In this document: positions 1,555 through 64,000 of the stretch, piece after piece
Position numbering within the stretch: the first letter of the stretch is position 1
How the letters are laid out: the number at the start of each line of letters is the position of its first letter
NCBI GenBank assembly: GCA_964596115.1
Contig: CAZQRW010000003.1
Location: 5,883 to 69,882 of the forward strand
Source of the DNA: an uncultured bacterium
GTDB lineage: Bacteria > Hydrothermota > UBA3072 > B12-G15
Reading direction: 5' to 3'
Length of the DNA: 64,000 nucleotides
Notes under the pieces: generated by a model
What the model was told of the DNA's origin: nothing
Databases searched by the model: none
What the model saw: only the letters and a program-made list of their open reading frames with translations
Position numbers and translations under genes: made by a program

Positions 1555-3308
1555 AAATTCCTGGTAAGATACCCCAATTACCAGGGGTATATATTTTTTT
1601 AAATCAGGATAAGAGTCCAATATATATTGGGAAGGCAAAAGACTTAAAGAAAAGAGTTGAGTCTCATTTCAGGAGTGATGCCCCTATAAAGTCTCAAATT
1701 GTAGTTAGAAATGCTGTCTCCATCGAATTTATAATTACTGAAAACGAAGAAGAAGCTTTACTTCTTGAAGATACATTAATAAAAAAGTACATACCTCGTT
1801 ATAATATAAGATTAAAGGATGATAAGAAATACCCATATATAAAGGTTACGATAAATGAGGATTATCCGAGGGTTTTTTATACCCGGAAGGTAGTAAAGGA
1901 TGGTTCAATATATTTTGGGCCATATACAAATGTGAAGTCAATTAAAAAATCGCTTCTTATACTAAATAGGATATTTCCATTGCGAAGATGCAGGACAAAA
2001 AAGCTCCCTGATAAAGTATGCCTTGATTATTATATTGGAAGGTGTTTAGGCCCCTGTGAAAATAAAATTACTAAGGAGGAATATAAAAATTTAGTAGAGG
2101 GTGCAATTGAGTTTCTTAAGGGTGATATAGATAAAGTTCAAACAAAAGTAGAAAAGATAATGTGGGCTTATGCAGAGAAAGAGGATTTTGAAAATGCTGC
2201 AAGAATGAGAAATCAGTTAATGGCTATAAGAGAGATTACCAAAAAACAGACTATGGTAACGGATCTCAAGGAAGATATTGATATTATTGGTCTTTACAGG
2301 GAATTGTCTTCTATCTGTATTTTTATATTTCAGTTGAGAAATGGTAGAATTATTGGGAAGGCACATTATTTTATTGAATCCAGTAAGGGAGATTCGGAAA
2401 GAGAAATCATTAGATATGCGCTTTTGAAACTTTATAATGATATTTTCTTTAAGCCCCAAAAGATTGTAGTGCCCATTATGCCATATGATCGAACATTGCT
2501 TGAAAAAGTACTTGGAACAAAAATAGTCACATCGAAGGGAGGTAAATTAAATAGAATAGTCAAACTTGCGGAGAAAAATGCATATGTTGAGTTTGAATCA
2601 AAAAAAATAGAGATAAAAAGGTCAGTACCTTACTTCTTAAAAGAACTGCAGAAATTAGTTCATCTAAAAAAACCACCAAGAAGAATTGAGGGTTTTGATA
2701 TATCAGATCTTTTTGGTAAAGATGCAGTAGGCTCCTGTGTAGTATTTATTAATGGGAAACCTAAAAAATCAGAATACAGGAGGTTTAAAATAAAGAGTGT
2801 AACAGGCATTAATGATTTTGCAATGATAGCTGAGGTTGTCTCCCGGAGGATTAATGTATTAATTAGAGAGGAGAAAGAGTTCCCAGATTTGATTTTGCTG
2901 GATGGTGGAAAAGGGCAATTAAACACAGTGCTAAATATAATGAAAGAAATTAACGTTGGTATACCAGTGTTGGGGCTTGCAAAGAGATTGGAGGAAATAT
3001 ATCTTCCTGACGGGAGAGTTGTTTCTCTGCCTGGAAATTCAAGTGTATTAAAGTTGTTGCAGAGAATAAGGGATGAAGCACACAGATTTGCAATTTCTTA
3101 TCATAAAAAACTAAGGTCAAAAAAATTAACCAAGTCAAAATTAGACAAAATACAAGGTATAGGAGAAAAGAGAAAACAATCACTTATATTATTCTTTGGA
3201 TCTGAAAAAAAAGTGGAAGAGGCATCTATAGAAGAGCTGATGAGAGTCAAGGGCATTGGCAAGAATGTAGCCAAAGTTATATATGAAAAATTTCACAAAC
3301 TCTATTGA
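1551..3308 (+). CDS. uvrC: excinuclease ABC subunit C
   Basis: 585 aa. N-terminal GIY-YIG motif (GVYIFLNQDKSPIYIGKAKDLKKRV), UvrBC-interaction region, and C-terminal RNaseH-like/HhH region (GIGEKRKQSL...). Overlaps the upstream gene by 4 nt. Confidence 0.95.
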   Translation: MKIPGKIPQLPGVYIFLNQDKSPIYIGKAKDLKKRVESHFRSDAPIKSQIVVRNAVSIEFIITENEEEALLLEDTLIKKYIPRYNIRLKDDKKYPYIKVTINEDYPRVFYTRKVVKDGSIYFGPYTNVKSIKKSLLILNRIFPLRRCRTKKLPDKVCLDYYIGRCLGPCENKITKEEYKNLVEGAIEFLKGDIDKVQTKVEKIMWAYAEKEDFENAARMRNQLMAIREITKKQTMVTDLKEDIDIIGLYRELSSICIFIFQLRNGRIIGKAHYFIESSKGDSEREIIRYALLKLYNDIFFKPQKIVVPIMPYDRTLLEKVLGTKIVTSKGGKLNRIVKLAEKNAYVEFESKKIEIKRSVPYFLKELQKLVHLKKPPRRIEGFDISDLFGKDAVGSCVVFINGKPKKSEYRRFKIKSVTGINDFAMIAEVVSRRINVLIREEKEFPDLILLDGGKGQLNTVLNIMKEINVGIPVLGLAKRLEEIYLPDGRVVSLPGNSSVLKLLQRIRDEAHRFAISYHKKLRSKKLTKSKLDKIQGIGEKRKQSLILFFGSEKKVEEASIEELMRVKGIGKNVAKVIYEKFHKLY

Positions 3309-3332
3309 ATAATTCTAAAATTTTGCTATAAT
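3305..3332 (+). promoter_or_regulatory. sigma70-like promoter (TTGAAT-16-TATAAT) for the paaI-like/ferritin-like/rex operon
   Basis: -35 TTGAAT at 3305-3310, a 16-nt spacer, and a perfect TATAAT at 3327-3332, located 7 nt upstream of the ATG at 3339. Confidence 0.4.
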
Positions 3333-3338
3333 ACTTGT

Positions 3339-3743
3339 ATGAATTTTATTAGTGATGATAACTATTGTGTTATGTGTGGAAAACTAAATCCAGTGGGTTT
3401 AAGGTTAGAGTTCAGACTTAACAATGGAGAATCTGAGGCTGATGTCATTTTCCCAAAATATTTTGAAGGGTATAATGGCATAACCCACGGTGGAATTGTT
3501 TCTTCTGTATTAGATGAAGCTTCTGTTTATGCTGCTACATCTATTGGGGAGGTTTGTGTTACAGGTGAATTGAAAGTTAGGTTCAAAAGACCTGTAAAGA
3601 CTAACGCTCCTTACGTAATTAAGGGTAAGATAATCGAAAGAAGAGGTAAGATAATATTAACAAAATCAAAGATAGTGGATAATGATGGTAACATTTATGC
3701 ATATGCAAATGCCAAGTTGTTTTCAGTAAAGGAGGACAGTTAG
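3339..3743 (+). CDS. PaaI-family hotdog-fold thioesterase
   Basis: 134 aa. N-terminal zinc-ribbon-like CVMCG, followed by the hotdog signature GITHGGIVSSVLDEASVYAA. Confidence 0.7.
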   Translation: MNFISDDNYCVMCGKLNPVGLRLEFRLNNGESEADVIFPKYFEGYNGITHGGIVSSVLDEASVYAATSIGEVCVTGELKVRFKRPVKTNAPYVIKGKIIERRGKIILTKSKIVDNDGNIYAYANAKLFSVKEDS

Positions 3744-6108: not shown

Positions 6109-6753
6109 TTAGACTTTTTTTGAGATTGATAGTCTTAAAAATTTATAAAAAATCTTTTCTTCCATTTCGGTAAACCCATTTTCAGCAAGCATCTTCTTAA
6201 GTTTTCTATTTATAAAATCTTCAGCTAACGGGCATTCAACCTTTCTAACAAGATACTTTACAAAAAATGGGGAATAATCTATGTCAAAATTATTATAATC
6301 AAAAATATAAAAATATCCTTCGGGTTTTAGAGCCCTTAAGGCATTTACCAAAATTTTGATTCTATTTTCCTGAGTGAAACCATGAAGAACAAAAGAAATA
6401 AACACCTTATCAAATTCCTCTTTAAAGGGAAGTGGGTTTTCGATTCTGTAAGGTAAAAGATCAATTTTTTTACAAAGGTTTTTTCTTTTCAAGAATTGTC
6501 TTTGCATCTCTTTACTGATTTCAAGACCAATTACCTTTCCTGTGCTTAGGTATTTTGACATTATACAGGCATTTTTTCCAGTACCTGCCCCAAGATCGAG
6601 AATTTTATCATCCGGTTTTATACGCATATATGCTATAACTTTATTGATAAGTTTGGTGTATTTACCTAGGGATAGAAAATCCAGCATTCTATCATAGATC
6701 TTTGCCTCAAAATCGCCTATTTCAACAAAAGGCTTTGTATTCTTTTCATCCAT
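6109..6753 (-). CDS. class I SAM-dependent methyltransferase
   Basis: 214 aa with SAM-binding motif I (ILDLGAGTGKNA) and a downstream acidic motif. Abuts the MFS gene. Confidence 0.8.
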   Translation of the reverse strand: MDEKNTKPFVEIGDFEAKIYDRMLDFLSLGKYTKLINKVIAYMRIKPDDKILDLGAGTGKNACIMSKYLSTGKVIGLEISKEMQRQFLKRKNLCKKIDLLPYRIENPLPFKEEFDKVFISFVLHGFTQENRIKILVNALRALKPEGYFYIFDYNNFDIDYSPFFVKYLVRKVECPLAEDFINRKLKKMLAENGFTEMEEKIFYKFLRLSISKKV

Positions 6754-7094
6754 TAAATGATTATATACGTAAAAAAGAATTTTTCAATACACCTCTTGGT
6801 GTCAGTCTCTAAATTTTAAATTTTACTAAAGACATAAAGGCGGGTAATATAGTCAAAATGTAGTCAAGACGCAAAGGAGGATATAAAAGGCAGGATACAG
6901 GAGACAGAATATAGCAAAGACAAACGACGAGACATAAATCTCATCTTTCTGGTTAGTAAATTTTTTTCTTTTTGGGTTCTTAAACAGACAGAGTAGAAGA
7001 AATATAGAAAGAAAAACGAGTAGGAGAAAAATAGAAAAAGAGTAAGGCAGAGAACGATATGATATAAAATATAAAGAATAGGAAATGAAAAACC

Positions 7095-7122
7095 TTTACA
7101 CAATTTGATTTTTGTATATAAT
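7095..7122 (+). promoter_or_regulatory. sigma70-like promoter (TTTACA-16-TATAAT) for the M14 peptidase gene
   Basis: -35 TTTACA at 7095-7100, a 16-nt spacer, and a perfect TATAAT at 7117-7122. The RBS AAGGAGGAAGG at 7131-7140 and the GTG start at 7142 lie downstream. The ATG at 7112 used by the ORF track sits inside the -10 box, so it is unlikely to be the true start. Confidence 0.5.
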
Positions 7123-7141
7123 CTGTAAAAAGGAGGAAGGT

Positions 7142-9676
7142 GTGAGACAATTATTTACGTTCTTTTTATCATTATCTATTGTTTTGTTTCCCAAGTATAG
7201 TCAGGTAAGAGTTTATACAACTAATTACAATGCAGTAAAGGATATGGATATTGTAAGAACAAAGAGGGATGTTTTTTTTGAAATTATTGCAAATGATAAT
7301 GACCTTTCAAAACTTGATAAAAGAGGACTTAAATTTGAGGTTATCATCCCTGACCTTGAATCTTATTATAGTTCTAAAATGAGTGGGAAGGGAACATTCG
7401 GAAATTATTATACCTATAGTGAGGCAATTGCAATTCTTGATTCACTTCATAATGCCCACCCTGATATATCAACGTCTTTGTTTTCTATTGGGACGTCATG
7501 GGATGGTAATGATATGTGGGTTATGAAGATATCGGATAATCCTAATTTAGATGAAGATGAACCAGAGGTTTTTGCAGATGGGGTAATCCATGCCAGGGAG
7601 CCCATAGGAGCAAATATAATCGTTGAGACGGTCAGGAGGATTCTTGATGGATATGGCAATGATCCGACCATTACTTATCTTGTAAATAATAGGGAAATGT
7701 ATTTTATGCCCGTATTCAATCCCGATGGTTATTTATATAATGAAAGCACCAACCCTAACGGTGGAGGTATGTGGAGGAAAAACAGGAGAAACAACGGTGG
7801 TGGTATTTATGGGGTCGATCTCAACAGAAATTTTTCATATGAATGGGGGGTTGGTAATGTATCTTCAGATCCATCATCCAATGTATATATGGGTCCTGAT
7901 TCCTTTTCTGAGCCAGAAACACAGCACTTCAGGGCGTTTGTGGATTCACATAATATATATGTATATCTAAATATTCACTCTTATTCAGATGCTATACTTG
8001 TCCCCTGGTCCTGGGACCCAAACGGGCATTGGGCTCCCGCACCCGATAGTGAAATTTTTTACGAAATGGGAACACATATGCAGGCCTTCAACAATTATGA
8101 CCTTGGCACAACGGTGCAGACGATTGGCTATAATTGTGGAGGCACCGCTACTGACTGGATGTATGGACAACAATTAGAAAAACCAAAGGTATATGCATTT
8201 GTTACAGAGGTTGGGGAGTCATTCTGGCAGGAATCGGCTATTTCGAGGCAACTTGGAGAGATGGTTCCCGCAGTGCTGTTTTTAGAAAAGACAGCGGGTG
8301 TTTTTGTAGAACCCGGAGAATTGGTCATCGATGATACACTTGGAAATGGCAATGGGAAATTTGAGGCAGGAGAGGCAGGTAATCTCAATTTTAATATTAG
8401 TAATTTGGGTTTTAAAGATACTGCTGAAAACGTTATCATTAGATTGACAACGGACGATCCTTTTATTTACTTGCATAGTGCAATTGAAGGATTTTCTTCT
8501 ATATTGCCTTATGATTCTGTACAGTGTTCTTTTCCTGTTTCGATAGATTCATCTATTCCTGATGGCCACCTAATTAATATTTTAAGAACAATCTATCTCA
8601 GCGGTATTGAAGTGTATATGGATACAATAAAGATTGCAGTGGGAAACGAGGTCGCTCTTTTTTATGATGATTTTGAGGAGGGGCCGAGTCAATGGAACTG
8701 GGATTCGCCCTGGGCCATTACAACAGAGGATTATCATTCTCCAGATCATTCTGCAACCGATAGCCCTGGTGGATCATACAGCAACTATACAGATGCCAGT
8801 ATTACCACAGTTAATTCGATATCTATACCCAATTGGGATAACATTTCCCTCTCATTTTACCACAAATACCAGATTGAGACTGGATGGGACTATGGTTATT
8901 GTTTGGTATTCAATGGTACTGAATGGGATACATTGGATAGTTTTACTGGTACAAATAATGTATGGAGAAAAAAGAGTTACTCACTTAATTCCTACTGTGG
9001 GGAGAGTATTAAGCTAAAGTTTAGATTTTATTCAGATGTCTCTGTTACCTATGATGGATGGCATATCGATGACGTTTTGGTTTCTGGATTTCAACCGGTT
9101 GGGGATAGTATTCCTTCTACCCCTACTCTGGTCTCCCCTGTTAATGACACAGTTTATACAATTTATCCTGAATTAACAGTGAATAATTCCATTGATCCGG
9201 ATAATGATACGTTGTTCTATGGATTCAGGGTGTACTCTGATTCCCTTCAGACCAATATTGTTACGAAGATCGATAGTGTACCTGAAGGTAGTTCAACTAC
9301 GAGCTGGCAGGTAAGTGTTCCCCTTACGGAGGGAATGTATTATTGGCGTGCCTATGCGAGTGACGGTATTGAAAGAAGCAGGCTTTCTAATACAGGGATG
9401 TTTTATGTCAATACTGCTGGCATTGCAGAAAGAAAGGCGGTATTTTCTATAACCAGAGGTCTCATCCAAAGAAGCATATATATAAGTACGGATAAAATGA
9501 ATAACTATGAATTTAGCCTTTATGATATTGCTGGTAGAAAAGTTCTGGATTATAGGCTAAAGGGCTCACATTATATAGACCTTAAGAATGTAGGTCTTGG
9601 AAAAGGGAATTACTTTTTCATAATAAAGTCTGGGCAACAGAAGATTAAAGGGAAGCTCGTTTATATTGGAGGGTAG
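7142..9676 (+). CDS. secreted M14-family zinc carboxypeptidase with T9SS C-terminal sorting domain
   Basis: GTG start after a strong SD, then signal peptide VRQLFTFFLSLSIVLFPKYSQV. M14 motifs are present: HAREPIG (HxxE zinc ligands), NPDGY, DLNRNF, NIHSYSD. A middle beta-sandwich-like module (WNWDSPWAITTEDYHSPDHS...WHIDDVLVSG) follows. The C-terminal ~55 aa (FSLYDIAGRKVL...GNYFFIIKSGQQKIKGKLVYIGG) match the Por/T9SS CTD pattern. Confidence 0.85.
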   Translation: MRQLFTFFLSLSIVLFPKYSQVRVYTTNYNAVKDMDIVRTKRDVFFEIIANDNDLSKLDKRGLKFEVIIPDLESYYSSKMSGKGTFGNYYTYSEAIAILDSLHNAHPDISTSLFSIGTSWDGNDMWVMKISDNPNLDEDEPEVFADGVIHAREPIGANIIVETVRRILDGYGNDPTITYLVNNREMYFMPVFNPDGYLYNESTNPNGGGMWRKNRRNNGGGIYGVDLNRNFSYEWGVGNVSSDPSSNVYMGPDSFSEPETQHFRAFVDSHNIYVYLNIHSYSDAILVPWSWDPNGHWAPAPDSEIFYEMGTHMQAFNNYDLGTTVQTIGYNCGGTATDWMYGQQLEKPKVYAFVTEVGESFWQESAISRQLGEMVPAVLFLEKTAGVFVEPGELVIDDTLGNGNGKFEAGEAGNLNFNISNLGFKDTAENVIIRLTTDDPFIYLHSAIEGFSSILPYDSVQCSFPVSIDSSIPDGHLINILRTIYLSGIEVYMDTIKIAVGNEVALFYDDFEEGPSQWNWDSPWAITTEDYHSPDHSATDSPGGSYSNYTDASITTVNSISIPNWDNISLSFYHKYQIETGWDYGYCLVFNGTEWDTLDSFTGTNNVWRKKSYSLNSYCGESIKLKFRFYSDVSVTYDGWHIDDVLVSGFQPVGDSIPSTPTLVSPVNDTVYTIYPELTVNNSIDPDNDTLFYGFRVYSDSLQTNIVTKIDSVPEGSSTTSWQVSVPLTEGMYYWRAYASDGIERSRLSNTGMFYVNTAGIAERKAVFSITRGLIQRSIYISTDKMNNYEFSLYDIAGRKVLDYRLKGSHYIDLKNVGLGKGNYFFIIKSGQQKIKGKLVYIGG

Positions 9677-9783: not shown

Positions 9784-10215
9784 TTAAGTTTCTTTTTTTC
9801 TCCATACCATTGCAATGTGTGGGATACCTGCCTCAAGAAATTCCTCCCCTATTGATTCAAATCCAAGATTCAGGTAGAAATCTTTTATGTATGTTTGGGA
9901 ATGAAGCCAGATTTCATTTATTCCCTTTGAAACTGCATAGTCAATCATTCTTTCCATAATTTTTTTTCCGATTCTTTTTCCTCTGTATTTTTTTATTACA
10001 GCTACCCTTCCAATATAGTATTTTTTACCATCATAAAAAAACCTTGCTGTGCCAATGGGCTTTTTATTTTGGTATACGACAAGATGAGTGGCGATATCAT
10101 CGTATACATCTATTTCAATTGAAGGATCGATACCTTCTTCATCTATAAAAACACTTTTCCTTACAGGATAAGCCCTTTTTAACCCATTTTTTCCTTTTAG
10201 AAATTTAAACATCAT
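9784..10215 (-). CDS. GNAT family N-acetyltransferase
   Basis: 143 aa with the acetyl-CoA binding motif IGRVAVIKKYRGKRIGKKIM. Confidence 0.8.
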   Translation of the reverse strand: MMFKFLKGKNGLKRAYPVRKSVFIDEEGIDPSIEIDVYDDIATHLVVYQNKKPIGTARFFYDGKKYYIGRVAVIKKYRGKRIGKKIMERMIDYAVSKGINEIWLHSQTYIKDFYLNLGFESIGEEFLEAGIPHIAMVWRKKET

Positions 10216-11271: not shown

Positions 11272-12183
11272 TCAGTCCTCTCTTATAGTTTCGAGTAGGA
11301 GTTTAAACGAGAAACCCTTAAAGAGATCAGGAGGCGTTTTGAGTATAAATGTATTATTATCAGGGGTCTCTCCAAGAGAAAGCGTTTTTTTCTGAAATAA
11401 TGAGTAATCTTTCAACACAACATCAAATTTTAGTCCTTCAGAATGGTGATTGAGAGAGATTATTTTCGCAAAATAATCATCCATTGTTATTGGTTTGTAT
11501 ACAAAAGATCTAAGCTTATCTGGTTTTACCTTTATCTTTATATTATCATTGTATTTGAATTCAACTATTTTATGTTCCACAATGGGGTGTAAAACTTTTT
11601 TAAATTGCATATAGTATATTTTTTTACCTAAACTTCTCCATTTCCTTTCATATTTTGTCTCAAAATACCCTTCATTCCTCTGGACGAAGCCACTCTTAAA
11701 GATTGGTCTCCAGACCTTGTAATGAACTATTTCTTCAAGGGTGAAATCTCTATAGAATGGATCATCTGTAACTATGATTAGCCCCCCGTCTTTTTTTGAA
11801 CGAGATGCTGTTAGTAAACTGAAAGACCTGTCAATTAACCTTCTCTTATGGTGTTTTTTCTTTGGCCATGGATCCGGGAAATTTACATATATGTATTCCA
11901 ATGAGCATTCCGGTATAAGCAGTTGAAATGCAGATTCTGCATCAAGATTAATTAATATCACGTTCGAAAGATTAGAGTTTGATAGCTTTTTTGAAGCTTT
12001 TTTTGTAGAAACAATTGAGTAATCAATACCGATAAAATTTTTATCAGGATTCTCCTTTGCTTTATGGACAAGAAAGGAACCGTCACCAAAGCCAATTTCA
12101 CATTGGACGGCATTATTATTGCCAAATAGAAGTTCGAAGTTTAAAGGTTTTTTTTCTTTCACCCAATCTAGAACAAATTCCAT
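11272..12183 (-). CDS. trmB: tRNA (guanine46-N7)-methyltransferase TrmB with a C-terminal extension
   Basis: The N-terminal ~210 aa carry TrmB motifs (EIGFGDGSFL, NFPDPWPKKKHHKRRL). An extra ~90 aa C-terminal domain of unknown function follows. Confidence 0.75.
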   Translation of the reverse strand: MEFVLDWVKEKKPLNFELLFGNNNAVQCEIGFGDGSFLVHKAKENPDKNFIGIDYSIVSTKKASKKLSNSNLSNVILINLDAESAFQLLIPECSLEYIYVNFPDPWPKKKHHKRRLIDRSFSLLTASRSKKDGGLIIVTDDPFYRDFTLEEIVHYKVWRPIFKSGFVQRNEGYFETKYERKWRSLGKKIYYMQFKKVLHPIVEHKIVEFKYNDNIKIKVKPDKLRSFVYKPITMDDYFAKIISLNHHSEGLKFDVVLKDYSLFQKKTLSLGETPDNNTFILKTPPDLFKGFSFKLLLETIRED

Positions 12184-12295
12184 AGTATATAAATATTGCA
12201 GATTGCAACATTGTCAATATCTATTGGAAATAAAAAAATAGATTTAGAAATTTCTCAATATGTCCACATACTTGTATGAGGGACAAATCACTTTC

Positions 12296-12323
12296 TTGAC
12301 AAGATAACTGCATTCTCTATAAT
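12296..12323 (+). promoter_or_regulatory. sigma70-like promoter TTGACA-16-TATAAT, giving a leaderless transcript of the PduT-like gene
   Basis: Perfect -35 at 12296-12301 and perfect -10 at 12318-12323. The ATG at 12329 lies only 5 nt after the -10, and no SD is present. Confidence 0.5.
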
Positions 12324-12328
12324 AGGGT

Positions 12329-12877
12329 ATGACAAAGGCAATTGGTTTGCTTGAGTTTATAAGTATTGCGAAAGGGATTGAATCTACAGATGATGCTCTC
12401 AAGGCCTCTACTGTAGATTTGTTATTAGCACGACCAATTTGTCCCGGAAAGTATATTTTTCTTATCTCAGGTGATGTTTCTAATGTGAGAAATAGTATCG
12501 AGTCTGCAAAGAGAATTGGAATAGAGACGGTAGTGGACGAACTTATTATTCCTAATATCCATCCGGACTTAATCCCTGCTATTTCTGCTATTACTGTTAT
12601 TGAGGAAATCAATGCATTAGGGATTATAGAAACGTTTTCTTGTGCTTCTACTATTGAGGCAGCAGATGTAGCTGCAAAAACAGCCGAAGTTTCTCTTATA
12701 GAGGTCCGACTTGGAATGGGTATTGGTGGGAAGGCTTTTTTAACCCTAACTGGGGAAGTTGAGGCTGTTAAATCCTCTATTAGATCCGCTGCTATGATAC
12801 CTGAAAGAAAAGGTCTATTGGTTAGAAAAGTAGTAATCCCATCACCCCATAGAGACATAAAGAATTTTATACTTTAA
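12329..12877 (+). CDS. tandem-BMC-domain (BMC-T) shell protein, PduT-like
   Basis: 182 aa with two BMC repeats. The first repeat is MTKAIGLLEFISIAKGIESTDDALKASTVDLLLARPICPGKYIFLISGDV, including the ICPGK cysteine that ligates a 4Fe-4S cluster in PduT. The second is ALGIIETFSCASTIEAADVAAKTAEVSLIEVRLGMGIGGKAFLTLTGEVEAV. The antisense ORF 12244..12858 is low-complexity noise. Confidence 0.7.
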   Translation: MTKAIGLLEFISIAKGIESTDDALKASTVDLLLARPICPGKYIFLISGDVSNVRNSIESAKRIGIETVVDELIIPNIHPDLIPAISAITVIEEINALGIIETFSCASTIEAADVAAKTAEVSLIEVRLGMGIGGKAFLTLTGEVEAVKSSIRSAAMIPERKGLLVRKVVIPSPHRDIKNFIL

Positions 12878-12881
12878 ACTT

Positions 12882-13214
12882 ATGAATATAGGAACCGATA
12901 TTGTTTTTATCCCAAGGATTGAAAAAATACTAAAAAAATGGGGCAAGAGATTTTTAGAAAGGGTATTTACTTCTGAAGAGATCACATATTGCATAAAGAA
13001 ACAAAGGCCTGAGGTATGTTTTGCTGGGCGTTTTGCCGCAAAGGAGGCTATATTTAAGGCACTGGGGAGAGGGAATTTGGCTTTTAAAGATATTGAAATA
13101 ATTAGCGAGGGTCCTCCCTTCATTACTCTAAATAAGGGAGAGAAACCATCTATAAAAGTTAGTATCTCCCATGATGGAAATTATGCAGTGGCTACCGCCA
13201 TTGTTGAAAACTGA
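12882..13214 (+). CDS. acpS: holo-[acyl-carrier-protein] synthase
   Basis: 110 aa. GTDIVFIPRIEK..., FAAKEAIFKALG, ISISHDGNYAVATAIVE. Confidence 0.9.
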   Translation: MNIGTDIVFIPRIEKILKKWGKRFLERVFTSEEITYCIKKQRPEVCFAGRFAAKEAIFKALGRGNLAFKDIEIISEGPPFITLNKGEKPSIKVSISHDGNYAVATAIVEN

Positions 13215-13218
13215 GAAG

Positions 13219-13956
13219 TTATATCTCTTTTTTTATTTTTTGCCAGATTGAATCCATCTCTTGTAATGAAAGGTTTTTTTTACCATATTTTTCAATCTCT
13301 TTTTCGAGTCTTTCGAACCTCTTTGAAAATTTATCACATGCCTTGTGTAAGGCGATTTCTGGAGAAAAGTTTAAAAAATTACCCAGATGCGCTACAACGA
13401 ATAGAATATCACCAAATTCTTCTTCGACTTCTAACGGGTTTTTTGCGTTTTTTAATTCTTCTATTTCCTCTTCAATCTTGTCATAGACTCCAGAAATATT
13501 GTTCCATTCAAAGCCCTTTCTTTTAGCCCTTTCCTGGATTTTATAGGCTCTGATTAATGCTGGGATATCCTTTTCAATATTCCATTCTCTTCCCTTTCTC
13601 TTATCCCATTTTTCCAGAACTTCTTCAGCTGTTTTTGCTGTATCTTTTCCGAATACATGGGGATGCCTTGCAATTATTTTTTTCTTTATATGTTTTATCA
13701 CATCAGAACCCGAAATACCCTTTTCTTCAAGTAATACCATCATCATAACTACAACGAGTAGAACATCACCTAATTCTTCATTTGTTGCGGGGAGATTACT
13801 TTTCTTTATTGCAGCAATTAGTTCAAATCCTTCCTCAATGAGATATTCAGACATTGATTTGAGTGTTTGTTTTCTATCCCAGGGGCATTCTTGCCTCAAC
13901 CGTTTAACAATTGAGAAAAATTCGTTAAATTCCTGGTCCGTTTTCTTTTCAACCAT
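13219..13956 (-). CDS. mazG: nucleoside triphosphate pyrophosphohydrolase MazG
   Basis: 245 aa with two MazG EExxE repeats (LIEEGFELIAAIK, EELGDVLLVV and EEEFGDILFVVAHL). Confidence 0.85.
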   Translation of the reverse strand: MVEKKTDQEFNEFFSIVKRLRQECPWDRKQTLKSMSEYLIEEGFELIAAIKKSNLPATNEELGDVLLVVVMMMVLLEEKGISGSDVIKHIKKKIIARHPHVFGKDTAKTAEEVLEKWDKRKGREWNIEKDIPALIRAYKIQERAKRKGFEWNNISGVYDKIEEEIEELKNAKNPLEVEEEFGDILFVVAHLGNFLNFSPEIALHKACDKFSKRFERLEKEIEKYGKKNLSLQEMDSIWQKIKKEI

Positions 13957-14105
13957 ATTGGAAATAATATTACTACTTAAACATATGTCAAGTAAAATTA
14001 AGATTTATAGATGGTTGAATAACTTTGAGTCCTGAAATTTTTTAATGTGGATGCTCTAAATTTTGACCATTCTGATAGAGGTTGAATTCTGAGTAATGCA
14101 TATTT

Positions 14106-14310: not shown

Positions 14311-15684
14311 TTATACGTATACATAGGCATTGAGGGCTCGCCATCTCGTCCTCTGGAATAACTCATAGTATGGGTAATTGTTGGGTAGATTTAATATTAT
14401 TTCTCTTCCATGTTTTATCACGCTACCACCAATATTTATTAAAGTAAATCTGAGAGTTTTTAATCTATATATACTCCATCTATAAGGTAACACTGTTAAT
14501 GCAAATAATCTCATTAAATTAAATGCAAGTAATATTATCTGAAAAAATGCACTATTCGCTAATAACTCCCCTGTTGGTATACTATTGAGGGCATAGTCAC
14601 CTTTTAATTCTTTTATTGTATTCTCTGCATCACCACGCCTCTGATACCACCTCATTACTGCAGATTTATCCCAATTATATATATTCGTTATTATTGCATA
14701 ATAACTATACTTAAATTCTTCAAATAATACAGGATCCCTTACTTTTCTCCTCTTCACTATCAGTCTGTATGCATCCCCCTTCTGATCTGGACCTATAAAA
14801 TGTTGCGTCTCTGCTATCTCTTCACCCTCACTGAAATATTCCCATCTGTCCGAAGGTATCCACCTTATACCCCGCCTCACAGCTTTATCCATATCAGCAC
14901 CTATACCAAATAATATCCCTCTTAAATCACAAAACCTCATTATACGATACTGATAGGCAGCACTGTCTGAACGAAAATATATACGCCTTACTCCAAGCCC
15001 CTTAACTTTATTGTATATACCCCTCAATAATGATAAATTGTTGGCAGATGGTGAAGCATTCCCAGGCCTGAATACCCCGCTTATTACCATATCTAATTCC
15101 TTTATTATCCCCAAAAGTGGGTTGAAACCCTTCACCTTTTTATATGTATATTCCGCACTCTCTTTCTCACTCTCTATAACCGTAGAGTCTATGTCTATAG
15201 TAATATGACGAAGCCTTTTCCTCTTTATTGCCTTTTTTACCAATCCATTGCTTATTCCCCTTATTACATTGATATCCCTCCTTTTAAACTGCCTTAAAAA
15301 TTCCCCCATTGTGTTCGGTCTCGGTATATCTTTTCTGTCAAATAATCTCAAAAGCCCAGAATCTGATTCTATTATCCTTATATGCCTTAGCCTATCCCCA
15401 CCAGAAATTATCATCCCCATTAAGTAAAATATCTTCTCATAAACCCTGTATCCTCGCATCCTCCTCTTTAAATGCCCTAATCCTACCTCTATAACCTTGA
15501 ATATACCAAGAGATTTCATAAATGAACCTATAACACTAAGACCCGCATGTGATGTTACTGATAAATTTTTTGATTTTTTTACCTTGAATTTATCCAGATT
15601 ATCGTGTATCATTATACCTCCATAGGTTTGATTTTTTACTTCACCCACTTTCACCTGGTGGGTGAAGTTTTTTCTATTCCCCAT
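14311..15684 (-). CDS. IS1380-family DDE transposase
   Basis: 457 aa. The HAGLSVIGSF N-terminal region, the ITIDIDSTVIESEKE (DDE D1) region, and the C-terminal YQRRGDAENTIKELKGDYAL motif are characteristic of IS1380/IS4-like transposases. Confidence 0.85.
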   Translation of the reverse strand: MGNRKNFTHQVKVGEVKNQTYGGIMIHDNLDKFKVKKSKNLSVTSHAGLSVIGSFMKSLGIFKVIEVGLGHLKRRMRGYRVYEKIFYLMGMIISGGDRLRHIRIIESDSGLLRLFDRKDIPRPNTMGEFLRQFKRRDINVIRGISNGLVKKAIKRKRLRHITIDIDSTVIESEKESAEYTYKKVKGFNPLLGIIKELDMVISGVFRPGNASPSANNLSLLRGIYNKVKGLGVRRIYFRSDSAAYQYRIMRFCDLRGILFGIGADMDKAVRRGIRWIPSDRWEYFSEGEEIAETQHFIGPDQKGDAYRLIVKRRKVRDPVLFEEFKYSYYAIITNIYNWDKSAVMRWYQRRGDAENTIKELKGDYALNSIPTGELLANSAFFQIILLAFNLMRLFALTVLPYRWSIYRLKTLRFTLINIGGSVIKHGREIILNLPNNYPYYELFQRTRWRALNAYVYV

Positions 15685-15746
15685 AACTCCCTTATTCTAT
15701 AGAATTTACAATGCTTTTCAAGCCCTCTTATTGCTAAAATCTATCA

Positions 15747-15777: not shown

Positions 15778-15805
15778 TTGACAATCATATAGATTAATGT
15801 ATATT
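15778..15805 (+). promoter_or_regulatory. sigma70-like promoter TTGACA-16-TATATT for tRNA-fMet
   Basis: -35 at 15778-15783 and -10 at 15800-15805, placed 9 nt upstream of tRNA position +1. It lies immediately outside the IS right end, so it appears intact. Confidence 0.55.
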
Positions 15806-15814
15806 TATTTATGA

Positions 15815-15886
<72 letters not shown>

Positions 15887-33286: not shown

Positions 33287-34614
33287 TATCTTAAGCCAAG
33301 TTTATAAATTTTGTTTGAATTTATGCCTTTTGTGGCATTGCGGGTATCAAGAATTATTGTTGAGTGTTTTACAATAAAATTAAAATCATAAAAATCATGT
33401 GCATCGATAATTACAAGGGCATTTGCACTTTTTAAAGTTTTTTCAGTTATTTCTGTAGATTTATAGGTTTTGTTATTTATAGTAATCTGTGGAACGAAAG
33501 GATCATTATATAAGATTTTTCCTGCTCGAGGGGAGAGCAGTTTTATTATTCTAATCGCAGCAGAATTTCTCGTATCTTTTATATTTTCTTTAAATGCAAC
33601 GCCAAGAATAAATATAGTAGATCCCTTCAGCATAATATTATTTTGATTCAGGATATATTGAAGTTTATCTACAACATAGTATGGCATATTTTCGTTTACT
33701 CTTGCAGATAATTCAATAAAAGAAGTATGAAAATCATACTCTCTTGCTTTCCAGGAGAGATAATATGGATCAATTGGTATACAATGTCCGCCAAGGCCAG
33801 GGCCTGGGTAAAAGGGCATATACCCAAATGGTTTGGTTTTCGCAGCTTCAATAACTTCCCATATATCGATATTGCCCATTCTTTCACATAAGAGTGCAAG
33901 CTCGTTCACAAGTGCTATATTTACATTCCTGAATATATTCTCGAGTAATTTTGTCATTTCTGCAACCCTCGGTGAGGATACAATGTGAACCTTATCAACT
34001 ATTTTTTTATAGAGTAGGGCAGTTAGCCTTGTGCATTCAGGAGTGACACCACCAACTACAACGGGAATCTCGTGAGGCCTAAATTTTTTGTTTCCTGGAT
34101 CTACTCTTTCTGGAGCAAAAGAGAGAAAAAAATCTTTGCCGACACTTAGACCGCTTTTTTCAAGTATGGGGAGCACCTCTTTTTCTGTGGTTTCTGGATA
34201 TGTGGTACTTTTTAAAATAATGAGTTGGTCTTTTCTAAGGTATTTTGAAATTTCTTCTGCTGCTGCCATTACGAATCTGAGATCCGGATCCTTTGTTGCA
34301 GTAAACGGTGTAGGAACACAGATATTTATGACGTCACAATCAGAAATCATTTTGTAATCATTGTAAAAAGTAAATTGGCCATTCTTTACATAAGGTTTAA
34401 TATCTTCATTTGTAACATCATCTATGTATGAAATCCCCTTTTTTAACATATGGAGTTTTTCGTTAGAAAGGTCTATACCAATCACCTTATAGTTCTTTTG
34501 TAGAAAAGAAAAGGCCAATGGTATACCTACATAACCTAGACCCACTATTCCAATTACTGCAGTTTTTTCATTTATTTTTTTGTCAAGCATAATGAGATTA
34601 TATGATTCAGGCAT
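33286..34614 (-). CDS. UDP-sugar 6-dehydrogenase family protein (TviB/WbpA-like UDP-GlcNAc dehydrogenase)
   Basis: 442 aa. N-terminal GIVGLGYVGIPLA Rossmann fold and a catalytic Cys region (GGHCIPID). Overlaps the epimerase by 1 nt. Confidence 0.85.
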   Translation of the reverse strand: MPESYNLIMLDKKINEKTAVIGIVGLGYVGIPLAFSFLQKNYKVIGIDLSNEKLHMLKKGISYIDDVTNEDIKPYVKNGQFTFYNDYKMISDCDVINICVPTPFTATKDPDLRFVMAAAEEISKYLRKDQLIILKSTTYPETTEKEVLPILEKSGLSVGKDFFLSFAPERVDPGNKKFRPHEIPVVVGGVTPECTRLTALLYKKIVDKVHIVSSPRVAEMTKLLENIFRNVNIALVNELALLCERMGNIDIWEVIEAAKTKPFGYMPFYPGPGLGGHCIPIDPYYLSWKAREYDFHTSFIELSARVNENMPYYVVDKLQYILNQNNIMLKGSTIFILGVAFKENIKDTRNSAAIRIIKLLSPRAGKILYNDPFVPQITINNKTYKSTEITEKTLKSANALVIIDAHDFYDFNFIVKHSTIILDTRNATKGINSNKIYKLGLR

Positions 34615-34762
34615 ATTTTGTCAAGTGAGAAACAAGTTTTGAATCGCCGATTTATCATTCGGGAGATTTTTCTTAATATTAAGTTGCCATCTGATTGCTT
34701 TATAAGATATCATAGTCTTTATGAATGGGCATATAGTAGTAACTAGGGTAATAAAAATTTAT

Positions 34763-60240: not shown

Positions 60241-61170
60241 TTATCTTACCCTCATTCCTGCAGTTTCATCCCAATGGAGTGGTTTGTCAAATTTAGGAAG
60301 TGGTGCACCAGGGACTTCCTTTATAGATACACCATATTTCCAATTAGGTGGGCATACTGCGATATAACGTGCATAACCACCAGCTCCATTTTTTGGCTTT
60401 GCAAATCCTATTACTATTAATGCACCAGCCTCAGGGACCTTGTCAAGATTTGTTACACCCTCTGCCTGGCAATAATGGTTATGCATAAGCCAATATTCAC
60501 CTTCAAGTGATGCAGTGGTATCTGTATCAAGTGGTTCGTGACCATGGAATAATATATGTCTCTCCAAATGAAGGAACTTTATGGCATCAAGACCGACACC
60601 AGCAAAGGGGAATTCGTCACATTTTTTCTTATCAGGCCATCTCTTTGACCAATCAGAACGAACCATCACTACAGAGCCAGCGGGTATTTTGCCGTGCTTT
60701 GCTTCCCAATCCTTGATATCCTGAACAGAACAATGATAACCAGGATCCTTAGCCACCTTGTCATGGATATCTATTACTACAAGGGGTCTTATCGCATAGG
60801 TTGCAGGAAGGTCACTTATAGTTGCTGCATATGGTTCCCAGTGAGCAGGTGGGTCTAACTGTGTCCCATACTGGTCAGTTGGGATATAGTAAGCTGTAGC
60901 AATAAATCCATGTTCCTTGTAGGTAAATACCTGGCCCTTTTTGACATAACCTGGCATTTCTTTACCAGCCTTGGCGGGGTAAAATTTTGCATTACCAAAG
61001 CCTACCCAGACAGGGATCGTAGGGGTCATATCATGCGTCAAATCCACATACTTTGCATTCACGAAGTACTTGTTATACACCTTCCATAACGGATAACCTC
61101 TTCCATGGACGTTCACAGAAATCCCGAACAACAAAACAACAGCACCAACAACATAAAACCTTCTGGACAT
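60241..61170 (-). CDS. secreted cyclase-family protein (PF04199-like; kynurenine-formamidase/arylformamidase fold), copy 1
   Basis: Signal peptide MSRRFYVVGAVVLLFGISVNVHG. Motifs QYGTQLDPPAHW and HGHEPLDTDT resemble the HxGTHxDAPxH and second metal-binding motifs of the cyclase family. The likely start is the ATG at 61170; the track's GTG at 61176 lies inside the SD. Confidence 0.65.
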   Translation of the reverse strand: MSRRFYVVGAVVLLFGISVNVHGRGYPLWKVYNKYFVNAKYVDLTHDMTPTIPVWVGFGNAKFYPAKAGKEMPGYVKKGQVFTYKEHGFIATAYYIPTDQYGTQLDPPAHWEPYAATISDLPATYAIRPLVVIDIHDKVAKDPGYHCSVQDIKDWEAKHGKIPAGSVVMVRSDWSKRWPDKKKCDEFPFAGVGLDAIKFLHLERHILFHGHEPLDTDTTASLEGEYWLMHNHYCQAEGVTNLDKVPEAGALIVIGFAKPKNGAGGYARYIAVCPPNWKYGVSIKEVPGAPLPKFDKPLHWDETAGMRVR

Positions 61171-61191
61171 GAACACCTCCTTAGTTTGTTT

Positions 61192-61227
61192 TCACGGATT
61201 TACATCTTTCCTGTTATCTTTTCTCAT
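61192..61227 (-). other. leader mini-ORF (MRKDNRKDVNP) with strong SD, upstream of cyclase copy 1
   Basis: AACAAGGAGGTGCG-ATG, then 11 codons and TGA. It ends 21 nt before the SD of the cyclase gene. Confidence 0.3.
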
Positions 61228-61312
61228 CGCACCTCCTTGTTATTTATTTTTACTTTCTGTTATGATAGACGAAGCAACCAACATATCTATCTGCTTCCCT
61301 GTATTTTTAGAA

Positions 61313-61341
61313 ATTTTAAGTAAAAATAAAAAATTTGTCAA
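61313..61341 (-). promoter_or_regulatory. sigma70-like promoter TTGACA-17-TAAAAT internal to the operon (drives leader plus cyclase copy 1)
   Basis: On the minus strand, TTGACA (complement of 61336-61341), a 17-nt spacer, then TAAAAT (complement of 61313-61318). Confidence 0.4.
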
Positions 61342-61391
61342 GTGTTTTTTTAGTATTATCGATTGCAAAATTCCACAGGAAAATCATATTA

Positions 61392-62318
61392 TTATCTCGT
61401 TCTATAACCCTTTGTTTCATCGTAATAGAGTGGTTTGTCATATGTCGGAAGAGGATACCCTGGATTTTCTTTTATAGATACACCATATTTCCAATCAGGC
61501 GGGCAGATAGCGATATATCTTGCATAAGAACCTGTACCGCCCAGGAATTTTGGGAAACCAACTGCAATAAGGGCACCAGCCTCTGGAACCTTGTCAAGAT
61601 TTGTTACGCCCTCTGCCTGTGTAAAGTTCTGATGTAAGATCCATGCTTCACTGGCAAAATTACTTGTAGTATCAGTGTCCAAACATTCATGTCCGTGGAA
61701 TAATATATGCCTTTGTTCATGGAGGAATTTTACAGCCTCGAGGCATATGCCAGGAAGATGAGATTCAAATGCTTCTCTATCGTCCCATTTCTTTGACCAA
61801 TCAGAACGAATCATTACCACAGAGCCTGCTGGTATTTTGCCGTGCTTTGCTTCCCAGGCCTTTATGTCTTTGATCTGACAGTGATAATCGGGTTCCTTTT
61901 CTGTCTGTTTATGGACATCTATTACTACAAGTGGCCTTATGACATATGTAACTGGTATCTTATCTTGTGTGGTTCCATATGGGTTGAAATGTGCTGGTGC
62001 ATCTAATTGCGTCCCCATTTGATCGGTTGGCAAATAGTAAGCATTACAACAAAAACCATGCTTTTTGTAATTGAAAACCTCACCTTTTTTTGCAAAACCT
62101 GGCACCTCAACACCACATTTGGTAGCGTAGAACTTCGGTTGCCCAAATCCTTTCCAAATTGACATATAGGGAGTGATTGTGTGACTTAAGTCTACAAGCT
62201 TTGCATTTTCGAAATACTTGTAGTACACATTCCATAATGGATACTTTGTTGCATAGACGTTCACAGAAATTCCGAATAACATAACTACTACACCACATAC
62301 ATAAAACCTTTTGGACAT
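61392..62318 (-). CDS. secreted cyclase-family protein, copy 2 (tandem paralog)
   Basis: About 65% identical to copy 1 over the full length, with the same motifs (QMGTQLDAPAHF, HGHECLDTDT) and signal peptide. Likely start at the ATG at 62318. Confidence 0.65.
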   Translation of the reverse strand: MSKRFYVCGVVVMLFGISVNVYATKYPLWNVYYKYFENAKLVDLSHTITPYMSIWKGFGQPKFYATKCGVEVPGFAKKGEVFNYKKHGFCCNAYYLPTDQMGTQLDAPAHFNPYGTTQDKIPVTYVIRPLVVIDVHKQTEKEPDYHCQIKDIKAWEAKHGKIPAGSVVMIRSDWSKKWDDREAFESHLPGICLEAVKFLHEQRHILFHGHECLDTDTTSNFASEAWILHQNFTQAEGVTNLDKVPEAGALIAVGFPKFLGGTGSYARYIAICPPDWKYGVSIKENPGYPLPTYDKPLYYDETKGYRTR

Positions 62319-62376
62319 AAACACCTCCTTACGTTTGTTTTTACAGATTTAAAACTCTCCTTTCATCATTATCATC

Positions 62377-62397: not shown

Positions 62398-62493
62398 TTA
62401 TTTGTGTTTCATTGCCCTTGATATAAAATAGGCAAGGCCACCGTATAGAATCACAACACCTATGACGAGCATAGCTATAGCAGATGCATTCAT
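62398..62493 (-). CDS. 31-aa hydrophobic peptide (MetS-like small subunit of the NSS transporter)
   Basis: MNASAIAMLVIGVVILYGGLAYFISRAMKHK forms a single TM helix. RBS GGTAAGGAGGAATA-ATG. The start overlaps the transporter stop (TAATG). Not in the ORF track because it is under 60 aa. Confidence 0.45.
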   Translation of the reverse strand: MNASAIAMLVIGVVILYGGLAYFISRAMKHK

Positions 62494-63956
62494 TATTCCT
62501 CCTTACCTTTTATTTTCATTAAGACTACAGATAGAATGATAAATAGAGCCACTATACCAAATCCCACGAATGAGACCCAGCCTGGATATCCACCGTATCC
62601 CTTTCTTACAGTGTTTATGATCTCCATTACGAGTGAGATACCCAGAATTATTGGCGTAATTATCATTATACAGACATCCCACCACCTGCCTATCTTTACT
62701 TCAGAAACACTGTTAACATATTCCCTCATCTTCGATGCCTTAATTACATATCCTACAACTATTGCTTCCAGCAGTCCCACCAATGTTAAAATATATGAGC
62801 AGGTAAAATGGTCAAAGATATCAATCCAGTAATAACCCGCACGAGTGGTAAAAAACAATCCCCCCAAAAATCCAAAAATTACAACGATGGGTAGTATAAA
62901 TTTTCTCGGGAATTTCCATTTATCCATAAAACCTGCGGTAAATGGCTCCACCTGGGATATTTGGGAATCAATCCCAAGTGTTAAAAGTAATATAAAGAAA
63001 ATCACACCAAAGAAGGCAGCCCCAAAAGGTAAAAGAGATATTGTAGTTGGATAAGTGATAAATGCCAGACCGATGCCACTTGATGCTACCTGAGGTACTG
63101 TGACACCCTTTGCCACGGCAAGATATCCGAGGGTGGAGAATACTGCAAATCCAGCAAAGAATGCTGTGCCACAGTTTGCAAGTGATGTTATGAACGCATT
63201 ATTTGCTATATCCGAATCCTTCGGAAGGTAACTGGAATAGATTATAAGAGACCCCATTCCAAGACTCAGGGTAAAAAATATCTGGCCATATGCAGCAAGC
63301 CATGGTTCCGGATTCAGCAGGGACTTAAAATTAGGTGTAAGGTAGTAATTTAAACCATCAACAGCACCCGGTAGGGTCAGACCCCTGACAACCATTATAA
63401 TCAGGATTACCCAGGGGATTGAAACTGTCCAGTAGATTTCTTTACCTATGCTTTTTGTTCCCCTTCTCAGGTAGTTATAAGACCACAGCCATGTTAATGC
63501 AAGACCAATAATAATCATCCAGTTAAGTCCCCCCAATTGACCGGGACCTGAAGAAATATGAAGGAATTTATTAAAGAAGAATGCATTTGGGTTTGCTCCC
63601 CACATTGCCTTAACAGAAAATACGATGTAATTCCATATCCATCCCATTATTACTGAGTAATATAGGAAAATAGACATAACAGCAAAGAGGGCAAGCCAGC
63701 CAATCCATTCCAATCCCTTTTTGATCTTTGCAAATGCTAAGGGTGCTCCGCCCTGTGCCATCCTCCCAAGCCCAAATTCAACAATTACAAGTGGTATACC
63801 AGCTGTAATAAGTGCAATAAAATAAGGAATTAAAAAGGCACCTCCTCCATACCGATAGGTAATATACGGAAACCTCCATACATTACCAAGGCCAATTGCA
63901 GCACCTATTGATGCAAATAGAAAATCAGACCTTCTATTCCATCTTTCTCTTTCCAT
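62493..63956 (-). CDS. neurotransmitter:sodium symporter (NSS/SNF) family transporter
   Basis: N-terminal NSS signature RERWNRRSDFLFASIGAAIGLGNVWRFPY and 11-12 TM helices. Likely start at the ATG at 63956 (RBS AAAGGAGAG); the track's upstream GTG at 63971 falls in the SD region. Confidence 0.85.
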   Translation of the reverse strand: MERERWNRRSDFLFASIGAAIGLGNVWRFPYITYRYGGGAFLIPYFIALITAGIPLVIVEFGLGRMAQGGAPLAFAKIKKGLEWIGWLALFAVMSIFLYYSVIMGWIWNYIVFSVKAMWGANPNAFFFNKFLHISSGPGQLGGLNWMIIIGLALTWLWSYNYLRRGTKSIGKEIYWTVSIPWVILIIMVVRGLTLPGAVDGLNYYLTPNFKSLLNPEPWLAAYGQIFFTLSLGMGSLIIYSSYLPKDSDIANNAFITSLANCGTAFFAGFAVFSTLGYLAVAKGVTVPQVASSGIGLAFITYPTTISLLPFGAAFFGVIFFILLLTLGIDSQISQVEPFTAGFMDKWKFPRKFILPIVVIFGFLGGLFFTTRAGYYWIDIFDHFTCSYILTLVGLLEAIVVGYVIKASKMREYVNSVSEVKIGRWWDVCIMIITPIILGISLVMEIINTVRKGYGGYPGWVSFVGFGIVALFIILSVVLMKIKGKEE

Positions 63957-64000
63957 ATTCTCTCCTTTCACTTTTTAGTAAAGATAACCATCTTTACCTC

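Follow-up and report, generated by a model that had tools for sequence, protein, structure and literature searches.

A PduT-class shell protein gene of candidate division WOR-3 standing apart from other microcompartment genes

PduT is the [4Fe-4S] tandem-domain shell protein (BMC-T) of the bacterial microcompartment (BMC) for propanediol utilisation, and the N-termini of BMC cargo proteins such as PduP, PduD, EutC and EutE are encapsulation peptides. The cysteine-bearing homologs of PduT are almost always adjoined by PduS (PMC6325248). In the FRAG microcompartments the shell genes lie at up to six sites, remote from the enzymes, in relatives of the Ignavibacteriae and in candidate phyla; satellite pairs of PduS and PduT occur in the FRAG1, FRAG6 and ACI types, and for FRAG4, ACI and MIC3 the ACT proteins figure among the BMC-typical ones (PMC8217296, below called the catalog). 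Here we describe a gene of the window, by which we mean the whole stretch of 64,000 nucleotides that was analysed (contig CAZQRW010000003.1 of assembly GCA_964596115.1). Its product is a BMC-T protein of the PduT class, it is detached from PduS, and both its host and its nearest relatives belong to candidate division WOR-3, a phylum for which we found none described. With a confidence a little better than even, we lean towards reading it as one component of a dispersed (FRAG-like or satellite) shell, over reading it as a stand-alone Fe-S trimer.

The question matters since the presence of a BMC shell protein is commonly taken to diagnose a microcompartment. A PduT-type tile which is kept under selection with neither PduS nor shell genes nearby leaves two possibilities: fragmented microcompartments may reach WOR-3, where we found none reported, or a shell protein may live outside the organelle.

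Identity and conservation of the BMC-T protein

The gene and its key codon are located as follows.

12329..12877, + strand: coding sequence of the BMC-T protein (tandem BMC domains, PduT class), 182 aa; identified by Pfam, PDB sequence search, AlphaFold2 (AF2) model, Foldseek and dN/dS
12440..12442, + strand: TGT codon of the pore cysteine Cys38 (motif I-C-P-G-K-Y), which aligns with the cysteine of ICPGK in PduT and is invariant in homologs

The open reading frame (ORF) cannot be extended upstream. PF00936 (BMC) matches its product in two stretches, with 145.6 bits against a gathering score of 24.5, so that the protein has the tandem-domain architecture, domain 1 covering approximately residues 4-76 and domain 2 residues 95-180. 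In a sequence search of the PDB, the closest solved structure was 3NWG, the BMC-T protein of Desulfitobacterium hafniense (E 7e-60), and the PduT entries 3PAC and 3N79 (Salmonella/Citrobacter) followed at E ~1e-43, with ICPGK aligned to the ICPGK of PduT. The segment C38-P-G-K-Y of domain 1 fits the motif C-[PSA]-G-[KRS]-[YF], the signature of Fe-S-binding PduT homologs (PMC6325248). An AF2 model built with 13 homologs as input shows two alpha/beta BMC domains at a pLDDT of 93.5, and Foldseek gives it the fold of a BMC-T protein, with template modelling (TM) scores of 0.93 to 3NWG (rmsd 1.3 Å), 0.84-0.86 to PduT and 0.75-0.80 to HO BMC-T1. The original prediction, which had been made from the letters of the window, was of a PduT-like tandem BMC protein of the Fe-S type, with PF00936 scoring of the ORF as its check. 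The score lies well above the threshold and the prediction stands, with one amendment. The NCBIfam equivalog model TIGR02526 (eut_PduT) aligns over its full length with 151 bits, under its cutoff of 250.3; hence, judged by profile scores, the protein is of the PduT class rather than a PduT equivalog.

The substitutions tell that the gene is functional and under purifying selection: dN/dS is 0.20, 0.12 and 0.18 in the three close pairs, while between the WOR-3 lineages described below dN is ~0.25 and dS has reached saturation, the amino-acid identity being 66-68%. Cys38 is invariant in all of the 63 homologs embedded in BMC loci and in all WOR-3 copies. Nearly all positions which are at least 85% conserved in these 63 homologs are kept in WOR-3, including the Cys-Pro-Gly-Lys of the pore, the D-x-x-x-K edge motifs (D21/K25 and D113/K117), P75-N76-x-H78 and G133-G134-K135. 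The retention of residues at the tile edge would be expected of a tile which continues to pack against others. The sole consistent change of the WOR-3 copies at conserved positions is Met23 to Ala, and the clade has a set of invariant positions of its own (R35, R54, K61, T67, C105 and R166). The GC content of the gene, 38.1% against 35.7% for the window, is native-like.

One can also notice an antisense ORF of 204 aa (12244-12858, - strand) which covers nearly the whole BMC-T gene and exceeds the real gene in length. It has no match in Pfam and is very likely a shadow ORF, which might misguide gene callers based on length.

Isolation of the gene and partner candidates in sister lineages

The surroundings of the gene were covered over positions 7,065-88,779 (~82 kb) of the 123-kb source contig, with the precomputed Pfam families of the called genes. 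This is about 5% of one genome, assuming a genome of a few megabases; for each of the two other WOR-3 lineages ~20 kb are seen. The Pfam families of the called genes in the ~82 kb contain no second PF00936 and no PF03319 (BMC-P), PduS, PduL, glycyl radical enzyme or diol/ethanolamine lyase, and our own Pfam scan of the last genes of the window agrees in finding no further BMC genes. We also built hidden Markov models (HMMs), one for each BMC-T domain and one for BMC-P, the last from 103 ORFs seeded by three Pfam-verified ones, and ran them against stop-to-stop translations of all six frames; no other match appeared even at E<=10. The earlier statement that the 64 kb of the window hold no other BMC genes is therefore correct by families and by HMMs, and extends to ~82 kb. 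A sole PF00936 gene with zero PF03319 over the ~82 kb corresponds to the pattern of a satellite locus, which has only one of the two kinds of shell Pfam, is thereby unable to build a shell alone, and by definition goes with a main locus of BMC-H and BMC-P genes elsewhere in the genome (Axen 2014, Sutter 2021). The adjacent PduS which goes with the PduT class (Complex1_51K, Fer4_17 and RnfC_N domains) is missing here.

An aldehyde dehydrogenase (PF00171) is encoded ~1.5-3 kb past the right end of the window, at 6936-8351 of locus L156 (contig k141_88340), near an SNF-family transporter, a homoserine dehydrogenase, a GHMP kinase and dihydrodipicolinate synthase. We rejected it as a BMC core enzyme: it is of the non-acylating, lactaldehyde-dehydrogenase-like kind, it has no extensions, and its identity to a BMC acylating aldehyde dehydrogenase is 26% over 167 aa.

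At least 24 metagenome contigs from several samples, in ENA, JGI and Logan assemblies, carry the identical BMC-T protein, and the ORF is intact in all 24. The gene order, trmB on the - strand, then BMC-T and acpS, then mazG on the - strand, is the same in 10 of the 10 contigs shown in detail, and also in a strain with 97% identity (L097). Beyond this strain the homologs fall to 63-68% identity, and those which can be placed represent two further WOR-3 lineages. The assignment to WOR-3 comes from the protein clusters to which neighbouring gene products and the closest BMC-T relatives belong. In a neighbor-joining (NJ) tree the WOR-3 sequences of all three lineages form one clade; the deep branches of the tree are too short for naming a donor lineage. 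A scan of metagenome contigs added two more full loci of the WOR-3 type (L098, L099) and two partial fragments, and no new context. The three contexts are the following, a slash marking a change of strand or of unit.

Lineage A (the window and L097): trmB / BMC-T, acpS / mazG
Lineage B (L015-L017, L098, L155): hypF / BMC-T, 127-aa ACT protein, acpS / mazG
Lineage C (L013, L018, L154): FlpD/Fer4 cluster (other strand) / 101-aa CxxC...CxxC protein, BMC-T, Ldh_2 oxidoreductase

Within 10 kb on either side, another shell gene is present in none of the three WOR-3 lineages, against 50 of 54 loci outside WOR-3 (all those with at least 8 kb on both sides). The four lonely loci among the latter belong to one Thermoanaerobaculum (Acidobacteria), two Sumerlaeota and one genome labelled Bacteroidaceae; the phyla of the first three are covered by the PduS/T satellite types of the catalog. 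PduS is directly upstream in two of these four fully flanked loci and in most lonely loci overall, and it adjoins BMC-T in the annotated Bacillota locus as well as in 11 loci from other phyla. As for the lonely PduT-like genes themselves, those of the Acidobacteria (L051, L078) have PduS directly upstream, while those of the Sumerlaeota (L066, L068, L083) are without adjacent PduS and have a conserved neighbourhood of their own (clusters 4-7). These Sumerlaeota and Acidobacteria loci match the FRAG6 and ACI descriptions of the catalog only in part.

No neighbour is common to all three WOR-3 lineages, and we accordingly do not claim a functional link to acpS, to hypF or to the FlpD/Fer4 cluster. 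A new lead is the 127-aa ACT protein of lineage B, which is encoded between BMC-T and acpS (L017, 10558-10938; also in L015, L016, L098 and L155). Its N-terminus reads MELTQEDLKKLVAMIAEELNRGKTPSIEPEIPESS..., and residues 5-21 form a helix (MELTQEDLK[KR]LVAMIAEEL) which is amphipathic and conserved between two clusters, while the linker which follows differs between them in sequence and length. The N-terminal extension exists in only these two database clusters, all other ACT homologs having 81-102 aa and no extension. AF2 predicts the helix at 5-21, then disorder over residues 22-37 and an ACT domain modelled with confidence, and the architecture of the protein, as modelled, is like that of a protein with an encapsulation peptide. 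This points to a partner which may bind shell proteins. The type of helix resembling an encapsulation peptide which may mark candidate cargo is MELTQEDLKKLVAMIAEEL. There is no such motif in the ORFs of the window, and a protein search with the 42-aa region carrying it returned no candidates for other helix-tagged cargo.

In lineage C the gene upstream codes for a 101-aa protein (L018, 9693-9998; L154, 9696-10001) with two CxxC pairs, an acidic amphipathic helix in the middle and no match in Pfam. Its stop codon overlaps the start of BMC-T (TAATG), so that the two genes are translationally coupled, and an oxidoreductase of the Ldh_2 family comes after BMC-T.

Promoter layout and neighbouring genes

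The region upstream of the gene contains the following elements.

12184..12328, no strand: divergent intergenic region between trmB and BMC-T, 145 bp; no family match in Rfam
12296..12301, + strand: -35 hexamer TTGACA, read from the sequence; identical in the 97% strain L097
12318..12323, + strand: -10 hexamer TATAAT after a 16-nt spacer, ending 5 nt before ATG, read from the sequence; the layout recurs in L017

Between TATAAT and the ATG at 12329 lies AGGGT, and the 20 nt upstream of the ATG contain no Shine-Dalgarno (SD) sequence of the GGAG type. Direct reading thus confirms the promoter that had been proposed, TTGACA-16-TATAAT ending 5 nt before ATG without SD, and this is the layout of a leaderless gene, namely a -10 element 5-8 nt before the start and no SD. 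In positions 9-16.5 kb of the window it is the sole promoter matching the consensus at 12 of 12 positions. It is retained in strain L097. The WOR-3 ortholog of locus L017 (lineage B), which is 66% identical, has TTGACA at 9967-9972 and TATAAT at 9989-9994, again with a 16-nt spacer, then 6 nt and an ATG at 10001, with a different upstream neighbour and an intergenic region which, judged by eye without alignment, is otherwise unlike that of the window. In lineage C, TTGACT-16-TATAAT is followed by 7 nt and by the ATG of the small protein gene which precedes BMC-T.

A promoter scan of the window gave six sites located 5-9 nt from a start (five protein genes and a tRNA), against 0.29 expected if sites were uniformly placed. 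Another site, at a UDP-glucose dehydrogenase gene, was found separately from the scan and brings the abutting layouts to six protein genes including BMC-T. The four others are listed here; their promoters end 6-9 nt before the start codon.

3305-3339, + strand: 4HBT thioesterase; near-consensus, 16-nt spacer, no SD
6753-6787, - strand: methyltransferase; near-consensus, 16-nt spacer, no SD
13956-13991, - strand: mazG; TTGACA-16-TATTAT at 13991-13964, then 7 nt and ATG, no SD
15684-15721, - strand: transposase; near-consensus, 16-nt spacer, no SD

At the UDP-glucose 6-dehydrogenase gene (34590-34624, - strand) a promoter with 12 of 12 matches, TTGACA-16-TATAAT, overlaps the called start at 34614, and an in-frame ATG at 34590 lies 6 nt past the -10 element. 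This start has probably been mis-called, the true ATG being that at 34590, and the gene is probably leaderless. The promoter at 15778-15805 (TTGACA-16-TATATT) had been taken as the leaderless start of a protein ORF, and was reassigned to a tRNA-Met (15815-15886, + strand) which begins 9 nt after its -10 element. The mature 5' end of the tRNA at this distance agrees with a transcription start 6-8 nt past the -10 element. A called DUF218 ORF (starting at 15811 or 15829) runs over this tRNA; its true start is probably the ATG at 15892, 6 nt after the tRNA.

The claim that the mRNA of BMC-T is leaderless is well supported at the level of sequence, and has gained from the layout in L017 and from the spacing of the tRNA-Met. 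As the promoter abutting the ATG recurs at five other protein genes of the window, it is a habit of the genome and not a property specific to BMC-T. Many other genes of the window have AGGAGG SD sequences, and leaderless and SD-led genes appear to coexist in the genome. The recurrence of the layout suggests that leaderless mRNAs are widely used in WOR-3; a full-text literature search on the two subjects jointly returned no papers.

The immediate neighbours named in the original prediction, trmB, acpS and mazG, have been recovered as such by their Pfam families.

11272..12183, - strand: trmB-like methyltransferase, divergent neighbour; PF02390; its adjacency to BMC-T is not conserved in the other lineages
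12882..13214, + strand: acpS (holo-ACP synthase), 4 nt past the stop of BMC-T; PF01648; no SD and no promoter of its own seen
13219..13956, - strand: mazG, convergent neighbour; PF03819; with its own promoter abutting the ATG

Since acpS begins 4 nt downstream of BMC-T and has no SD, the two genes are probably co-transcribed and translationally coupled. The order BMC-T...acpS / mazG is conserved in lineage B.

Further away, an IS4/DDE transposase (PF13701, PF01609; 14311-15684, - strand) lies 1.4 kb from BMC-T, with a terminator-like hairpin after it at 15638-15668. Of the 10 metagenome contigs shown in detail, three end at this transposase, which probably reflects a multi-copy repeat in the genome. 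Two tandem paralogous genes of the PF04199 'putative cyclase' family (60241-62324 and 62493-63971, both on the - strand) adjoin a transporter of the sodium:neurotransmitter symporter family, and both have AAGGAG just upstream of an ATG located two codons inside the longest ORF.

Dispersed shell component or free-standing trimer

The molecular role that homology suggests for the protein is alike in the two readings which deserve consideration: it would form a pseudo-hexagonal trimeric tile in whose pore three cysteines hold a [4Fe-4S] cluster, and would serve as a conduit for electrons or clusters and as a docking surface. We slightly prefer the reading as a dispersed shell component. Under it, a consensus sigma-70 promoter would drive a leaderless mRNA which also carries acpS; the product would assemble into a trimer shaped as a hexagonal tile, the three Cys38 meeting at the central pore around the [4Fe-4S] cluster; the small WOR-3 clade would have inherited the gene from one common acquisition; and the other shell and cargo genes would be located at other sites of the genome, a situation known from the FRAG types and the PduS/T satellite loci. 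The tile would then be redox-active, passing electrons or an Fe-S cluster, and would offer a docking site for helix-tagged partners. We favour this reading because the edge and pore residues are intact, because lineage B has a neighbour with the features of an encapsulation peptide, because scattered shell genes have precedents in uncultured phyla of similar habitats, and because no natural BMC tile is known to work alone.

Several observations weigh against it. No shell gene, PduS, PduL, EutQ or acylating aldehyde dehydrogenase was found in the ~82 kb or within 10 kb on either side in the two other lineages, and phmmer with the PduS of the annotated Bacillota locus (L026) as query found no homolog in the window or at the loci of any of the three WOR-3 lineages. 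Among the GTDB species representatives only two have the WOR-3-type copy (two peptide patterns, the genome of the window not being among the matches). The nearest relatives outside WOR-3 by identity are Bacillota genes in compact loci, at 59-61%, against 49-54% for FCB-type genes, and this higher identity is in keeping with single-gene transfer. In contrast to the inducible catabolic BMC loci, the WOR-3 gene stands first in an operon which has a perfect consensus promoter and in which it is joined by the housekeeping gene acpS. Neither WOR-3 nor the UniProt entry A0A7C0ZKL3 was found in the text of the catalog and parts of its supplements, a weak negative (PMC8217296). Last, the N-terminus of PduS binds PduT directly (PMC6325248); this means that the helix of the ACT protein may dock on BMC-T itself, and is no proof of a closed shell.

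These observations lead to the principal alternative, to which we give a lower though still substantial probability: a WOR-3 ancestor acquired BMC-T only, and the trimer works outside any shell, as a constitutive [4Fe-4S] disc, soluble or sheet-forming, which carries electrons or clusters or gives a docking platform to the helix-tagged ACT protein. It accounts well for a gene which is always alone in WOR-3 (none of three lineages with a shell gene, against 50 of the 54 fully flanked relatives elsewhere), with no PduS nearby in any lineage. The operon with acpS, conserved in two lineages behind a promoter with 12 of 12 matches, looks constitutive, and the downstream partners are of three different kinds (acpS; ACT and acpS; Ldh_2), with a CxxC...CxxC protein translationally coupled upstream in one lineage. 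The clade is monophyletic, with its own invariant residues and the consistent M23A change; the gene has a native-like GC content (38.1% against 35.7%), it is narrowly distributed in WOR-3, it is more similar to the Bacillota compact-locus genes than to the FCB-type ones, and no WOR-3 microcompartment was reported in the literature searched. However, the view is limited to ~82 kb for lineage A and ~20 kb each for lineages B and C, and FRAG systems are scattered by definition; moreover, the conservation of the tile edge is easier to explain with tiling partners. We know of no natural BMC shell protein which works without a shell, and a literature search for a natural BMC tile working alone found none. 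The fullest version of this alternative, in which a WOR-3 clade without microcompartment captured a shell protein alone and uses it as a constitutive free-standing Fe-S trimer recruiting partners through helices like encapsulation peptides, is tentative and marginally less probable again. If this version is true, a BMC tile at work outside an organelle would have its first natural example here.

Selection, conservation and native GC content make two further explanations very unlikely. A non-functional relic, left by a lost microcompartment locus or by a recent horizontal transfer, would explain the isolation from all partner genes and the IS4-family transposase 1.4 kb away, but it is hardly compatible with dN/dS of 0.12-0.20 and saturated dS at 66-68% amino-acid identity, with an ORF intact in all 24 contigs from several samples, with a promoter layout conserved across lineages, or with a confident AF2 model and a native-like GC content; we consider it improbable in the extreme. 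Least credible of all is an artefact of assembly or binning by which a Bacillota BMC gene was joined to a WOR-3 contig: Bacillota do supply the closest relatives outside WOR-3, but the identity to them is only ~60%, the GC content matches the flanks, and the same trmB / BMC-T-acpS / mazG junctions in 10 of 10 detailed contigs from independent ENA, JGI and Logan assemblies, and in the 97% strain too, refute it.

The pore cluster of PduT is still without an established function. A system in which the tile goes without PduS and has small helix-tagged proteins as partners might give a clue to it.

Set beside known systems, the protein resembles PduT of Salmonella and Citrobacter (3N79, 3PAC) in its tandem, non-permuted domains, its equal length, an identity of 41% and TM scores of 0.84-0.86, as well as in the cysteine of the ICPGK pore motif, the D-x-x-x-K edge motifs and the I-P-N-x-H of domain 1. 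Unlike PduT, it scores under the TIGR02526 cutoff, has no adjacent pduS and stands outside any pdu, eut or grm locus; its domain 2 has IPSPH and not IPRPH, and its gene is probably co-transcribed with acpS. It is closer still to the BMC-T protein of D. hafniense (3NWG), also of 182 aa, with 56% identity, a TM score of 0.93 and an rmsd of 1.3 Å. The gene context of the Bacillota relatives, however, differs: L026 (~59% identity), the one Bacillota locus which was annotated in full, comprises an EutJ-like protein, PduS, BMC-T, EutQ, two BMC-H, another BMC protein, an acylating aldehyde dehydrogenase and PduL, and in the remaining close relatives from Bacillota BMC-H genes follow at 1-2 kb; around the WOR-3 gene none of these partner genes is present. 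With regard to encapsulation peptides (PduP, PduD, EutC, EutE), the ACT protein of lineage B shares with their bearers an amphipathic helix at the N-terminus, which a disordered linker of variable sequence connects to a globular domain; its homologs are without the extension. The protein is not encoded in the window, and its binding to a shell protein is putative.

Finally, the satellite PduS/T loci and the FRAG systems offer the closest match in gene organisation. They differ in that the WOR-3 gene has no PduS partner, and neither a BMC-P triplet nor a BMC-H was seen for the clade in the regions examined. We take WOR-3 to be related to the FCB group. As in the satellite and FRAG loci, a shell gene lies apart from other shell and enzyme genes, amid unrelated housekeeping genes; and as in FRAG, the hosts are uncultured phyla of similar sediment or anoxic communities, and ACT-domain proteins are associated.

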